A stretch of 64,000 nt of DNA from Rhizomicrobium sp. (GTDB lineage: Bacteria > Pseudomonadota > Alphaproteobacteria > Micropepsales > Micropepsaceae). The translations under genes were made by a program, and so were the position numbers. A model generated the notes under the pieces. The model was not told where the DNA came from and made no database searches. It saw only the letters and a program-made list of their open reading frames with translations. The stretch is from contig DATJUS010000041.1 in the NCBI GenBank assembly GCA_035502175.1, positions 2,936-66,935 of the forward strand. Direction: 5' to 3'. This document shows, piece by piece, positions 50,589 through 56,659 of this stretch (its first letter is position 1; every line of letters starts with the position of its first letter).

Positions 50589-51842
50589 CTACTTCTTGGT
50601 AACGCTGAACACGACGCCGTTCGAGTTCGCGCCGCCTGAAGCCGTCATGCCGTAGAAGGCACGACCGCTCTTGACCAGACCGGCGGAATATCCTCCGCCA
50701 TCGCTGCCGGTGAAGGTGTGCAGTACCTTCGCTTTGCCCTTCGGCGTGATCTCATACACCGTGCCGCACTGGCATGTCGGGTCGCCGCCTTCGCTCGCCA
50801 CGCTGTAAAGATTCTTGCCGACGCGCAGCATATCGCCCTCCGGAGAGCTACCATCCTTGCCGCCCGTGAAGTTGTAAAGTGTGGTCAGAGTTCCGCCCGG
50901 CGTCAGTTTGAAGACCGTGCCGGCATCGTTCGCGCCGCCGTCAGCGGTGCTGCCGTAGACATTCCCGTCCTTGTCGATATCCAGCCCACCATAAAGAAAG
51001 CCGCCGTCCGTACCGCCGGTGAAGCTGTAGAGCGTACTGAACGTTCCATCCGCGGCGATCTTGAACACCGAGCCGTTGTCGTTCGCCCCGCCGAACGCGG
51101 TGACGCCGTAAAGATTGCCGTCCCTGTCGCGCACGACCCCATGTTCCGGAAATTCGCCATCGCTGCCGTTGAACGCGTGCAGAACGGTGAACTTTCCGTC
51201 GAAGCCATATTTGTAGACGGTGCCATCGGCATTGGCGCCGCCGAAGAGCGCCGTTCCATAGAGATTGCCTTGCTTGTCACGGACGAGATCGCCCCGCAGG
51301 AAGGAGCCGTCGGTGCTGCTGAAATCGTGCAGCACCTTGTACTTTCCCTTCGAATTGATCCTGAAAATTACGCCGTTGCCGCCGGCGCCGCCCGCGCTAC
51401 CGGTGCCATAGATCGTACCGTTCCCCAGCACAATCACACCGCCATCCGGTTCCGAGCCGTCGCTGCCGGCGAAAGCATGCAGGATCGTCTGCGTGCCGTC
51501 GGGCGCGAGCCGGAAAACAACGCCATCGTTGTGAGTCCCGCCGAAATCTGTGGTTCCATAGGTATTCCCGGCATCGTCGAGTGTGACGTTCGCGCCCGAA
51601 TCCGCACCGTCACTAGCGCCGCCGGCGAAATCGTGCAGGTCGGTGTAGGTCCCTTCCGCAGCGCTCAGACCTGAAGCGCCGCCTCTGCCAAGTGGCGCGG
51701 CCCGCGGATGGTTCCCTTCCAGCGCACGCGCGCGCTTCAAATCGAGACGCACACTGTTCGCACCGACAGCCGGGGACAAAGCCGCAATAGCAATCGCCGA
51801 ACCAAGAAGAGCACAACGAAACGCCGTGAAACCGTTACGCAT
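50589..51842 (-). CDS. Secreted seven-repeat beta-propeller (TIGR03803-type repeats)
   Basis: Signal peptide + seven LHxF..xDG..P...L..D..GNLYG...GG....GxVF repeats. Confidence 0.85.
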   Translation of the reverse strand: MRNGFTAFRCALLGSAIAIAALSPAVGANSVRLDLKRARALEGNHPRAAPLGRGGASGLSAAEGTYTDLHDFAGGASDGADSGANVTLDDAGNTYGTTDFGGTHNDGVVFRLAPDGTQTILHAFAGSDGSEPDGGVIVLGNGTIYGTGSAGGAGGNGVIFRINSKGKYKVLHDFSSTDGSFLRGDLVRDKQGNLYGTALFGGANADGTVYKYGFDGKFTVLHAFNGSDGEFPEHGVVRDRDGNLYGVTAFGGANDNGSVFKIAADGTFSTLYSFTGGTDGGFLYGGLDIDKDGNVYGSTADGGANDAGTVFKLTPGGTLTTLYNFTGGKDGSSPEGDMLRVGKNLYSVASEGGDPTCQCGTVYEITPKGKAKVLHTFTGSDGGGYSAGLVKSGRAFYGMTASGGANSNGVVFSVTKK

Positions 51843-51994
51843 CGAAACTCCTATCCTGCCTGTTGGGCATGCGAGCCCGGATGGACCCGCTGTTTGCCCA
51901 CGTGACAACGACGAAACATCGCCGGCTGCCATTGGTTTCGAGGCGCCACGTTTTTTCCGCGCCGCAGCGCAGCATCGGAACAATTTTCTGAAAA

Positions 51995-53334: not shown

Positions 53335-54915
53335 CTAGACCGCCCCCGGAGCCTGCGAAAGAGGCCGGATTGCCGCCGCTTCGACCAGCGCTTTTGTCGC
53401 GGATTCCTTGGGATTTGCGAGCAGATTGCGGATCTGCCCGCGCTCCACGACCCGGCCGCCTTCGAACACCATGGCCTCGTCCGCCAACGCTTGCGCCACG
53501 GCGAAATCGCTGGTGATGACGAGGAAGGCCGATTGCTGCTCAGCACGAAAATCCATCAGCAGATCGCAGGTCGTCGTCTGCGCCACGGCATCGAGCCCCC
53601 GCAGCGGTTCATCGACCACGACCAGAAGCGGCGCGGAGACAATCGCACGCGCGACCATCAGCCTGCGCCGGTCAAACGGCGAGAGAGACGCAACCGTGCG
53701 CCGTCCGTCATACGAGGCCAGACCCACACGCTTCAGCGCCGCGTCGCGGTAGCCGGCGGTCAGATCGCGTGAGAGCTGAAGATGGGCACGCAGCGGTTCA
53801 TCGACCGTGTCCCAGATCGTCATGCGCGGATCGAGTGCGTCGTCGTTGCTGGACACGAAGGCGACGCGGCGGCGCAGACGGGCAGTCATCGCTTCGGAGA
53901 GAAGGTTGAGGTCGACGGCATCGAACAGGATACGTCCCGGCTTGCGTTCAAGGCCCAGCACAGCGCGCATCAAGGCGCGGCGCCCGGAGCCATCCTCGCC
54001 GACCAGGGCCAGCGATGCACCACGCCGCAACTCGAAACTCAGCGCATCTTTCGCACGCACCGCTTTCTTCAGTGGTGTGTTCAGCCCAAGACCCTGCACC
54101 TGCAGCAGAGGCTCGCCGCGCGCCGACGATCTCTGCGGCTTGTCGACGACGGGCTGCGGCAGGGCCTTGAACAAGGCCTGCGTGTAGGCATGGGTTTGGC
54201 CGCCCAGGAGGTGCGCGGCGTCATTCTCTTCAACGATGCGGCCCTGACGCAGCACCAGCGTGCGTGCGCCGAGCCGCAGCGCAGATTGCGGTCCGCGTGC
54301 GGCATAGAGAATCGCGAAATTGAGCCGCTTCTGTTCCGCCAGCAACGCATCGGTCAACGTGTGCGCGACCGAGGGTGAAAGATCGAGAAACGGATGGTCG
54401 CAAAGCATCAACGCCGGCGCCGTGGCGCAGGCCGCGGCCAACAGCGCCCAGGTGAGCGAGACATCGTCAAGCCGTTCCGGCGGCGCGTCCAGCAACTCGA
54501 ACGACGGTGCACCAGCGAGGCGTGCGAGCGCGCCGCGGAATTCCGCGAGCGCCGCACCGCGCGGGCATTCAAGCTTCCGCGCGATCACGCGCGCAAGCTG
54601 CGAGACGGCGCTGATCCGCGGATTGAGCGGTCGCGACGCCGTGCCGGGAAGATAGGCGACGGTGAACGGCGGGCGCGGCTTGCGGGCGGCCTGCTTCGCA
54701 TCGCCTTCGTTGAAGCGGATCGTGCCGGAGAACTCGTCGCCCCGCGCCGAGAGCCCATCGAGGAAGCACAGCACAATATCCTTGCCGCTATCCGCATCGC
54801 CGAGCATGACCACGGTTTCGCCGGGATTGAGCGTCAGCGAGAAGCGGTCAAGCACGGGCAGCGCCGTGTCGGGCCGTACAACGCGCAGATCGTCGATCTC
54901 GAGCAGCGCGGTCAT
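53335..54915 (-). CDS. Fused double ABC ATPase (DppD/F-like) with degenerate catalytic motifs
   Basis: Two NBD folds with GRIVE motifs; Walker A GDADSGKD and GEDGSGRR; no LSGGQ, Q-loop or H-loop. Confidence 0.8.
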   Translation of the reverse strand: MTALLEIDDLRVVRPDTALPVLDRFSLTLNPGETVVMLGDADSGKDIVLCFLDGLSARGDEFSGTIRFNEGDAKQAARKPRPPFTVAYLPGTASRPLNPRISAVSQLARVIARKLECPRGAALAEFRGALARLAGAPSFELLDAPPERLDDVSLTWALLAAACATAPALMLCDHPFLDLSPSVAHTLTDALLAEQKRLNFAILYAARGPQSALRLGARTLVLRQGRIVEENDAAHLLGGQTHAYTQALFKALPQPVVDKPQRSSARGEPLLQVQGLGLNTPLKKAVRAKDALSFELRRGASLALVGEDGSGRRALMRAVLGLERKPGRILFDAVDLNLLSEAMTARLRRRVAFVSSNDDALDPRMTIWDTVDEPLRAHLQLSRDLTAGYRDAALKRVGLASYDGRRTVASLSPFDRRRLMVARAIVSAPLLVVVDEPLRGLDAVAQTTTCDLLMDFRAEQQSAFLVITSDFAVAQALADEAMVFEGGRVVERGQIRNLLANPKESATKALVEAAAIRPLSQAPGAV

Positions 54916-55715
54916 GCGCGTTCTCCTTCGTCGAGACCTGCGGCGAGGCGTGCGAGCAGAACGAGCACAAGAAGCGACAGCACAGGGAATGAAGCCGTCC
55001 ACCATGCCTGCACGTAGACCGGCTTTGCTGCCGCGATCATCAGACCGAAATCGCGGTGCGGCGGCACGGCGCCGAATCCCAGAAAGCTGACCGTCGAGAG
55101 AATGATCGTGACGGCAGCGAACGCACGCGCGGCGGTCACAAGAAGCGCGTCGCGGACTTCGTAAGCCAGATCGCGGCGCAGCAGCGCAGATGGTGCAATG
55201 CCGGTCGCGCGCGCATAGGCGGCGTGCGCGGAATTCGCGGACACGCGCGCGCGATCGAACACGCGTACGAACGCCAGCGGCGCCGCCGCGAGACCAGCGG
55301 CAGCCGCGGCATAATCGCGGTTGGTCAGACCGATCAGAAGGATCGCAAGAAGCAGCGAAGGAACCGCCGCGAACACGCCCATCGCCCAGCGCGTCGGCAG
55401 GCGTATCGGCGCCGGCAGGCGCGCGGCGACGAATCCGAACACGCTGCCGGCCGCAATCGCCAGGAACGCGGCCGGCAAGGCATGAATGACGGTGACGTTC
55501 AAGGCGTGCAGGGTCTCGCTCAGGATATCGCGCCCGAGCTGGTCGGTGCCGAACGGAAACAGCGAAGACGGCGGCGTCAGGATGGGCCCGACATGGCCCG
55601 CGCCCGCAGGCGCACGCGCGAGAAAATCACTGAGCACGACGGCGATCGCGACAAGGCCGAGGCCGGACCAGCCCACCGCGATCAGAAACTTCCGCAGCAG
55701 CGGAGCGGGACTCAT
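54912..55715 (-). CDS. DppC/OppC-like ABC permease, divergent
   Basis: FPFGTDQLGRDILSE; LSTVSFLGFG; diverged EAA loop; ATGA overlaps. Confidence 0.8.
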   Translation of the reverse strand: MSPAPLLRKFLIAVGWSGLGLVAIAVVLSDFLARAPAGAGHVGPILTPPSSLFPFGTDQLGRDILSETLHALNVTVIHALPAAFLAIAAGSVFGFVAARLPAPIRLPTRWAMGVFAAVPSLLLAILLIGLTNRDYAAAAAGLAAAPLAFVRVFDRARVSANSAHAAYARATGIAPSALLRRDLAYEVRDALLVTAARAFAAVTIILSTVSFLGFGAVPPHRDFGLMIAAAKPVYVQAWWTASFPVLSLLVLVLLARLAAGLDEGERA

Positions 55716-56593
55716 GCCGAACGTCCCACGCTGACAATCGCTTCGGAGACGAGCCGCCCGAAAAAATTCGCAAACAGCACGATCGATGCGAAGAAGAACA
55801 GGATGAGTGCCGCGACATTCCAATCATGCAGCGCCACCGATTTTACGAACAGGTCGGCCGCACCGGGACATTTGAACACCCATTCCGAAACCACGGCGGC
55901 GGACAGCAGGGCGGCGACGACTTCGCCAAAGCTCTGGAACAGGCCCGCGAACACCATCGGCGCCACATAAGCGCGGTCGATCTCCAGCGCCGAGAGGCCC
56001 AGGCGCCGCAATCCTTCGCGGAACGGTTCGCCTTGCGCTTCCGATGCGGAGCGGCGGAGCGCCACCTGGATGGCCGCCATGCCGGCAAGACCGACCGTCA
56101 GGGCGGGCATCATCACCAGACGCAGCGCGGACTGGTCGGGATGGAGAACCTGCTGCACCGGCGGGAATTCGCCGTTGCCGGGCGCCCAGCCAAGAAACTT
56201 CCTGGCGACGAAGGCGAGGGCAAGGCCGGCGCAAAAGACCGGCGCCGCTGAAACGACCTGGATGACGGGTGCGGTGGCGCGGCGCACCGGTGCTGAACTC
56301 AGCAGCAGCCCGAACGGGGCACCCAAAACGATCGCAAGCGCGAGGCCGAGAAAAATAAGGGTCAGGGTGACCGGTGCATGTGCCGCCAATTCCTGCGCCG
56401 CGTCCGCGCCACTGATCGCGCTGGCGCCAAAATCGAGGCGGAGGAATGCGAACAGCCGTGTCACGATCGCAGCAAGGTCCGCGATGAGACCGTGGCTACT
56501 GGACGTCAGCGACGCGATGGCCGCCGCCATCAATAGCGCCCCGAAAAGCCCGAGCACGAACCGCCCGCTCTCTCTCAGCGCAAACCGCCACAT
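55712..56593 (-). CDS. DppB/OppB-like ABC permease, divergent
   Basis: LDFGASAISG, PVTLTL, EWVFKCPG, DWNV. Confidence 0.75.
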   Translation of the reverse strand: MWRFALRESGRFVLGLFGALLMAAAIASLTSSSHGLIADLAAIVTRLFAFLRLDFGASAISGADAAQELAAHAPVTLTLIFLGLALAIVLGAPFGLLLSSAPVRRATAPVIQVVSAAPVFCAGLALAFVARKFLGWAPGNGEFPPVQQVLHPDQSALRLVMMPALTVGLAGMAAIQVALRRSASEAQGEPFREGLRRLGLSALEIDRAYVAPMVFAGLFQSFGEVVAALLSAAVVSEWVFKCPGAADLFVKSVALHDWNVAALILFFFASIVLFANFFGRLVSEAIVSVGRSA

Positions 56594-56659
56594 GTCTGCT
56601 TCCCCGCACGCCGGGCGCGACTATATCAGGCCCCGCCGCCGCACAGGCAACCCAAATAT

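Follow-up and report, generated by a model that had tools for sequence, protein, structure and literature searches.

Among described ATP-binding cassette (ABC) transporters, the DppABCD and OppABCD systems of Mycobacterium tuberculosis (8wd9/8wda/8wdb and 8j5q–8j5t) combine two permeases of the BPD_transp_1 type with a single chain carrying both nucleotide-binding domains (NBDs); they have canonical motifs, hydrolyze ATP and need a substrate-binding protein (SBP), DppA or OppA. A fused NBD chain, YejF, also occurs in YejABEF of Escherichia coli, and further comparators are NikBCDE, Opp1/Opp2 and CntBCDF. Here, we describe a three-gene module on the minus strand of a 64,000-nt stretch of Rhizomicrobium sp. 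DNA (contig DATJUS010000041.1; this whole stretch is referred to as the window) that has the same layout as the mycobacterial systems, with permB and permC for two permeases and nbd for one fused double-NBD protein. Unlike those systems, it departs from the canonical motifs in both NBDs and lacks an associated SBP gene. In general terms, the module is very likely a retained ABC importer derivative that no longer hydrolyzes ATP.

The NBD protein found its best sequence and fold matches in M. tuberculosis DppD and OppD (E 1.7e-50), and the mycobacterial systems also gave good matches for PermC, with identities of 24–29%. PermB matched Pfam BPD_transp_1 (PF00528) at E 5e-11 and aligned to M. tuberculosis OppB and E. 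coli DppB. PermC had no Pfam match, and the NCBIfam NikC, Opp2C and DppC models matched it far below their cut-offs (Opp2C/NikC-like, E 1e-27); both permeases could nevertheless be aligned to Opp/Dpp permeases of solved structure. For the NBD protein, which matched ABC_tran at E 2e-23, the best NCBIfam model was the fused YejF (NF011713), which scored 212 bits where 834 are required; identity to the canonical YejF-like paralogue of the same genome, which has intact motifs and two adjacent family-5 SBP (SBP5) genes, was 27%. The best models for the permeases came from the Nik/Opp group (Opp2B, NikB, Opp2C, Opp1C and NikC), with top NCBIfam scores of 74 bits for Opp2B (cut-off 350) and 97 bits for Opp2C (cut-off 300), and NBD2 alone best matched CntD, CntF and NikE. 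The oligo_HPY domain (PF08352) was seen only after NBD1, at 23.6 bits against a cut-off of 27.1. Thus, no module protein reached the curated cut-off of a named equivalog (YejF, NikB/C/D/E, DppB/C/D/F or OppB/C/D/F). Judged by these matches, the module is a derivative of a type I ABC importer of the peptide/opine/nickel group (PepT, Opp/Dpp/Nik, TC 3.A.1.5), whose Nik/Opp/Cnt subtype may be its ancestor. In contrast to Nik, Opp and Cnt systems, it has no NikA/CntA-type SBP, its ATP sites appear dead and its scores all fall short of the equivalog cut-offs by a factor of 4 to 5.

Motif positions were read off alignments to M. tuberculosis DppD and OppD and to the YejF-like paralogue on contig C105 (NBD1: GESGSGKS, LSGGL, LLIADEP and SHD; NBD2: GESGCGKS, FSGGQ, VICDEA and SHD), and their conservation was tallied over 58 family sequences. 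In NBD1, the relaxed and putatively structural half of the protein (residues 1–262; 54130–54915, minus strand, as are all module features below), the Walker A-derived loop reads GDADSGKD (residues 39–46; 54778–54801) instead of GESGSGKS, the Q-loop glutamine is replaced by glycine (YLPG), LDDVS stands at the signature in place of LSGGx, Walker B has become LMLCDH (LLIADE in the paralogue) with loss of the catalytic glutamate, and the H-loop histidine is an arginine. In NBD2, the remodeled and highly constrained half (residues 263–526 plus the stop codon; 53335–54129), the Walker A-derived loop is GEDGSGRR (residues 306–313; 53977–54000), compared with GESGSGKS in M. tuberculosis DppD and GESGCGKS in the paralogue; the Q-loop glutamine is a serine, the signature-derived segment LSPFDRRR (residues 411–418; 53662–53685) aligns with LSGGQRQR (FSGGQ in the paralogue), and the H-loop reads ITSD rather than ISHD (His to Ser). 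The Walker B/D-loop segment VVVDEPLRGLD (residues 432–442; 53590–53622) retains its Asp-Glu pair. These substitutions had been listed in a preliminary description of the locus made from the sequence alone, and each of them indeed sits at the homologous position in our alignments. The losses at the A-loop come in addition to that list: its adenine-stacking aromatic residue falls into a gap in NBD1 in all 58 family sequences and is replaced by variable, non-aromatic residues in NBD2.

Between them, the two NBDs carry changes in each of the seven nucleotide-site motifs. Both deviate at the A-loop, Walker A, Q-loop, signature and H-loop, whereas the catalytic glutamate is gone in NBD1 only. Because motifs and A-loops are altered in both halves, both composite sites are degenerate: consensus residues are missing from site 1 (Walker A and B of NBD1 with the signature of NBD2) as well as from site 2 (Walker A and B of NBD2 with the signature of NBD1). 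Even ATP binding by the pseudo-NBD protein therefore looks unlikely from its sequence, and the breadth of the losses argues strongly that the complex would not pump by means of ATP.

Loss of the catalytic glutamate, the H-loop histidine and signature residues in an NBD that is nonetheless retained and functional is also seen in heterodimeric transporters with one degenerate site, such as the type IV exporters TM287/288, BmrCD, TAP, CFTR and MRP1 (reviewed in PMC7756269). Those transporters, however, keep one consensus site that hydrolyzes ATP and bind ATP at the other (PMC7756269), whereas in the present type I importer derivative both composite sites are degenerate and both A-loops are lost. 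ABC proteins that regulate other systems have likewise been described: SapD (TrkE), an NBD of the PepT family, confers ATP dependence on Trk K+ uptake according to Harms et al. 2001, as cited in PMC9898762, and the sulfonylurea receptor (SUR) subunits of KATP channels act as regulators (PMC9106677). Both bind ATP through intact motifs, in contrast to the present protein, and no partner channel gene lies beside the module. Full-text literature searches brought up no type I importer that keeps both permeases and both NBDs, lacks an SBP and has lost every ATP motif in both sites, and searches on doubly degenerate ABC transporters, bacterial ABC pseudoenzymes, Rhizomicrobium and Micropepsaceae yielded no account of this family.

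The motif losses are common to the whole family, and the tally revealed how constraint is distributed over the protein. NBD1 motif positions drift: K45 was found in 48 of 58 sequences, signature and H-loop are variable, D173 is the only invariant motif residue, and an acidic residue (Asp or Glu) occupies position 46 in 50/58. In NBD2, the residues invariant across the family (58/58) comprise G306, G311, R312 (replacing the Walker A lysine), L411, D415, R417 and R418, as well as E436, P437, L438, L441, D442 and T468, and position 313, a Ser or Thr in canonical proteins, is Arg in 45 and His in 13 sequences. The resulting consensus patterns (GExGSGR[RH], L-S-[PA]-F-D-[KR]-R-R, DEPLRGLD and IT[SA]D) form an arginine-rich set. 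D435 is present in 56/58 sequences; the two exceptions, which are the most divergent loci, have Phe or Tyr there. The best-conserved stretch of the entire NBD protein, ALDPRMT[LI]WDTVDEPLRAHL, belongs to the NBD2 helical subdomain. In canonical ABC transporters, the helical subdomain touches the permease coupling helix.

Selection on the module was assessed as the ratio of nonsynonymous to synonymous divergence (dN/dS), which was informative only against the closest relative (L079; synonymous divergence, dS, of ~0.9–1.2), as farther pairs saturate and their ratios rise. Values of 0.075 for permB, 0.068 for permC and 0.044 for nbd (0.065 and 0.025 for its NBD1 and NBD2 halves, respectively) fall in the range of the neighboring genes map (0.059) and radC (0.079), with purB at 0.018. 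The preliminary description had held the operon to be retained rather than decaying. This view stood up: with dN/dS of 0.04–0.08, far from 1, and intact, syntenic genes in ~58 species-level genomes, the module is under strong purifying selection across more than 50 species, which indicates that the complex is functional.

A word-index search returned more than 120 homologues with 55–93% identity, and a scan in which each GTDB species was represented by a single genome yielded 59 loci at 40–80% identity. All of these come from metagenome-assembled genomes (MAGs), most of which are labeled Rhizomicrobium or Alphaproteobacteria, whereas a few labels are generic or inconsistent. Beyond these 59 loci, identity falls sharply to canonical proteins (≤35%). 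Similarly, HMMER against 1.84 billion cluster representatives recovered only eight near-full-length clusters at 50% identity (435–698 bits), followed by short fragments and then by canonical proteins from ≤290 bits; the family is small and isolated. Its four most divergent representatives (P0125–P0128) are at least as degenerate as the protein in the window; among divergent members the NBD2 Walker B reads, for example, VVLFEP or LVLLEP, and the aspartate corresponding to D435 is lost. Half-degenerate intermediates were sought, but the next-best hits (L061 from Acetobacteraceae, and P0133, P0134, P0137 and P0143) all proved fully canonical. These sequences would be accounted for most simply by one degeneration event long ago, after which the degenerate form was kept.

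The gene order map-radC-permB-permC-nbd-purB is conserved in ~58 Rhizomicrobium/Micropepsaceae species, so that synteny with radC and purB, which the preliminary description had named as a check, holds throughout these loci. Module copies are nearly all single and in full-length open frames. Five genomes were flagged with internal stops; in the two that were checked, no stop lay in the aligned part of the gene, and we interpret the stop counted in the flagged genomes as the regular one at the C-terminus, beyond which the search had continued. In four loci on contigs with long-read-like names (L013, L016, L048 and L057), the permC or nbd gene fell into two or three alignment pieces, which could reflect homopolymer indel errors or genuine frameshifts.

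The module is confined to one largely uncultured lineage and is accessory within the family. It was present in 52 of 151 genomes sampled from the order, in two of eight genera, and in a non-carrier (G020) map, radC and purB are directly adjacent. In a purB tree, carriers and non-carriers interleave and the deep branches are poorly resolved, which permits no more than the statement that the module was lost at least once or is patchily distributed. Some relatives carry other genes at the module borders: a ~2 kb insert between radC and permB (L002:2243–4288) encodes a putative multicopper oxidase, and a ~1.5 kb insert between the NBD gene and purB (L027:7616–9082) a putative aldehyde dehydrogenase, both assigned by reading the sequence. 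The borders are thus tolerated insertion points and the three genes a conserved unit.

In both permeases, the glycine of the EAA motif is invariant, and the EAA/coupling regions are among the best-conserved parts of each. The PermC coupling region, (E)YARATG...LLRRDLxYE, contains invariant A168, G172, L178, R181, D182 and E186; E-Y-A-R-A-T-G, with the canonical E-x-A-x-x-x-G spacing, was read in 40 of 52 family members, while the protein in the window has Ala at the Glu position. The corresponding PermB region, PYRxGL[RK]x[ML]GL, has diverged from EAA but is conserved within the family (invariant L195, G199 and L200). The EAA loops, previously described as eroded, are thus altered to the extent that PermC of the window lacks the glutamate and PermB has diverged, but erosion is not an apt term for regions that are highly conserved with an invariant glycine. 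PermC also retains the GTDxLGRD motif typical of DppC/OppC, whose placement in the predicted model suggests a periplasmic location.

As the preliminary description had noted for the immediate surroundings, no SBP gene adjoins the module, either in the window or in ~58 related loci. A hidden SBP in the border inserts was considered and ruled out, as these inserts read as the putative oxidase and the putative dehydrogenase. The genome's only canonical PepT-type system (C105:12375–21016, minus strand) comprises two SBP5 genes and the 599-aa fused YejF-like ATPase with intact motifs, preceded upstream by a 648-aa open reading frame (ORF) that may be a putative fused YejB/YejE permease; a further SBP5 gene lies on C47. 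Across the family, 10 of 52 module-bearing genomes gave no match to the family-5 SBP model PF00496. In these ten, oligo_HPY was matched nowhere but in the degenerate NBD gene and in two relics that contain stop codons, so that they also lack any intact canonical ATPase of the Opp/Dpp type. Among the ten is G057, a closed genome of 4.26 Mb in a single contig, with an intact module at the usual site. The two relics are weak oligo_HPY matches with one to three stop codons (G057 C1:3530133–3530294 and G083 C16:396706–396804), possibly left by a lost canonical transporter.

AlphaFold2 (AF2) predicted the NBD protein with a mean predicted local distance difference test score (pLDDT) of 87 and a predicted template modeling (TM) score of 0.84; its nearest structural matches were resting or pre-translocation states of M. 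tuberculosis OppD/DppD (TM-score 0.80–0.82). The PermC model (pLDDT 88) superimposed on E. coli DppC (8z1w_B) with a TM-score of 0.86 and a root-mean-square deviation of 2.3 Å. By these models, the folds of the NBD protein and PermC are kept; together with the conserved coupling regions, this indicates that the machine and its internal interface persist while the chemistry of the nucleotide sites alone has been exchanged. An NBD dimer held permanently in an ATP-like closed state by salt bridges was also considered; the comparison of predicted folds slightly favors an open arrangement.

How might such a complex work? In the scenario we propose, the ancestor of one Micropepsaceae lineage would have lost the ability to hydrolyze ATP and, very probably, to bind it, with the complex being kept by purifying selection. 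A PermB-PermC heterodimer and one fused NBD1-NBD2 protein would form a stoichiometric inner-membrane complex, in which NBD1 would be a structural partner only and NBD2 the functional cytoplasmic module, its remodeled pocket either binding a non-adenine anionic ligand or forming a fixed interface. As the NBD-permease interface is conserved, the state of the pseudo-NBDs would still be transmitted to the permeases. The complex may accordingly represent not a pump but an energy-independent, ligand-controlled gate (a facilitator) or a transmembrane sensor. Taken as a whole, a retained non-hydrolyzing importer complex that serves as gate/facilitator or sensor is the reading we favor and regard as probable; its specific part, the assignment as an energy-independent gated facilitator or sensor, is tentative. 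More speculative still is a molecular version, in which the arginine-rich pocket (G-E-x-G-S-G-R-R/H, F-D-K/R-R-R and R439) might bind a non-adenine anionic metabolite or second messenger, or pair with acidic residues that replaced NBD1 motif positions (Asp/Glu46 and the mostly acidic positions 150–152), and thereby replace ATP as the element that opens or closes the dimer. With no input of energy, a DppBC-type pore could then be gated by a cytoplasmic signal, or the cytoplasm could read out a periplasmic one. If true, this would place among bacterial importers a counterpart to the eukaryotic ABC proteins that act as channels or regulators.

Several observations speak against the favored reading. 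Most members (56/58) keep the glycines of the P-loop and the Asp-Glu pair of Walker B in NBD2, and 48/58 keep the Walker A lysine in NBD1, which makes residual nucleotide binding possible. The AF2 arrangement of the NBDs is nearer to a resting/open state (TM-score 0.80–0.82) than to the ATP-closed one (0.73), a single-chain model being weak evidence either way. Finally, the module is missing from two thirds of the sampled genomes of the order and is therefore dispensable. The same retained residues speak for a complex that is still energized, be it through unorthodox chemistry, for example with Arg standing in for the Walker A lysine, or through an active ATPase borrowed from elsewhere in the genome. 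We regard this as improbable: the A-loop aromatic, the Mg-coordinating Ser/Thr, the Q-loop Gln, LSGGQ and the H-loop His are missing in both NBDs, the most divergent members also lack the NBD2 Walker B aspartate, the fused pseudo-NBD protein is translationally coupled and would fill both NBD docking sites, and carriers exist without an intact canonical Opp/Dpp-type ATPase. The last point bears equally on the notion that the complex is an accessory or regulatory partner of Opp, Dpp or Yej, or a receiver for an orphan family-5 SBP encoded elsewhere. The canonical YejABEF-like operon with its two SBP5 genes on C105, the additional SBP5 gene on C47 and the GTDxLGRD motif of PermC all speak for such a role, and the part of a regulatory partner of another Dpp/Opp system had been among those put forward in the preliminary description. 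It is contradicted, however, by the ten of 52 carriers without PF00496 in which oligo_HPY is limited to the degenerate gene and two relics, including the closed genome G057 with its module. Having neither SBP5 nor an intact canonical ATPase, these carriers are strong evidence that the module neither depends on a family-5 SBP nor serves as an Opp/Dpp partner, a role that is thus highly improbable.

A more serious competitor, albeit an unlikely one, is an inert scaffold, that is, a complex locked in a probably inward-facing resting state and serving as membrane anchor or assembly platform through which neither signal nor solute passes. This would fit the predicted fold of the fused NBDs, which is nearer to resting or pre-translocation than to ATP-closed states, as well as the loss of the nucleotide motifs including both A-loops and the drift of the NBD1 site residues. 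It accounts less well for the former catalytic positions of NBD2, whose invariance goes beyond mere tolerance, and for the strong conservation of the coupling helices and GTDxLGRD, which fits retained allostery better; nor is there a conserved neighboring partner gene. Recent pseudogenization, with a decaying operon that is still open by chance, can practically be dismissed. Very low scores against curated models and the absence of the module from two thirds of sampled genomes might be read in this way, but dN/dS values of 0.04–0.08, intact genes in more than 50 species at identities down to 40%, invariant substituted residues in NBD2 and confident AF2 folds are at odds with decay.

Homologues currently receive automated annotations such as "peptide/nickel transport system ATP-binding protein" or "ATP-binding cassette domain-containing protein", and these labels overstate the transport capacity that can be inferred for Micropepsaceae MAGs of peat and soil. 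ABC importers are classically understood as pumps driven by ATP. If functional, the module would show what roles the DppBC/NBD scaffold can have without ATP, be it gating, sensing or scaffolding. It further constitutes a natural experiment that separates NBD residues needed for structure and coupling from those needed for catalysis.

Within the window, permB (55712–56593; a DppB/NikB-like permease of 293 aa), permC (54912–55715; DppC/NikC-like, 267 aa) and nbd (53335–54915; a YejF/DppD-like fused double pseudo-NBD protein of 526 aa) follow each other on the minus strand, with map and radC (TIGR00608) upstream and purB (TIGR00928) downstream. Start and stop codons overlap as ATGA at 55712–55715 (permB/permC) and 54912–54915 (permC/nbd). 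The true starts are the ATG codons at 55715 for permC and 54915 for nbd, rather than those of the longer TTG- or ATG-initiated frames in the raw ORF list. Codon use is host-like (GC content at third codon positions 0.75–0.77; index similar to the codon adaptation index 0.60–0.66) and resembles that of radC and other neighbors. Both features agree with the earlier account of full-length, ATGA-coupled ORFs with host-like codons. Run on the module, PADLOC gave only a weak generic ABC match for nbd (mad3, E 7e-7) and no match for the permeases.

Inspection of the 66-bp gap between radC and permB revealed a promoter-like block, CTGATATAGTC (56619–56629, minus strand), 36 nt upstream of the permB ATG, and a –35-like TTGCCT (56645–56650, minus strand) at a distance of 15 nt from it. 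The block was invariant in an alignment of six relatives. Its 9-mer TGATATAGT recurs 31–41 nt before the permB start in 15 of 55 loci examined, and many other loci carry GCTATAGTC-type variants with an upstream TTGCC box, as read from their upstream sequences. A role as regulon operator was considered and rejected, as CTGATATAGTC has only three genomic copies, one of which (C113:769, minus strand) is likewise placed 36 nt upstream of the start of a gene unrelated to the module, for a signal peptide-bearing protein; the identical spacing fits a strong –10 element common to both. We therefore read the block as a generic, sigma-70-like –10 element and not as the mark of a regulon. Its conservation suggests that the module has its own promoter and does not rely on radC.

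On the far side of the module, directly 3′ of purB, the window encodes a protein of ~420–460 aa with seven tandem GloVer repeats (50589–51983, minus strand; TIGR03803, 303 bits), and a GloVer-repeat gene adjoins purB also in two relatives (L002 and L003).

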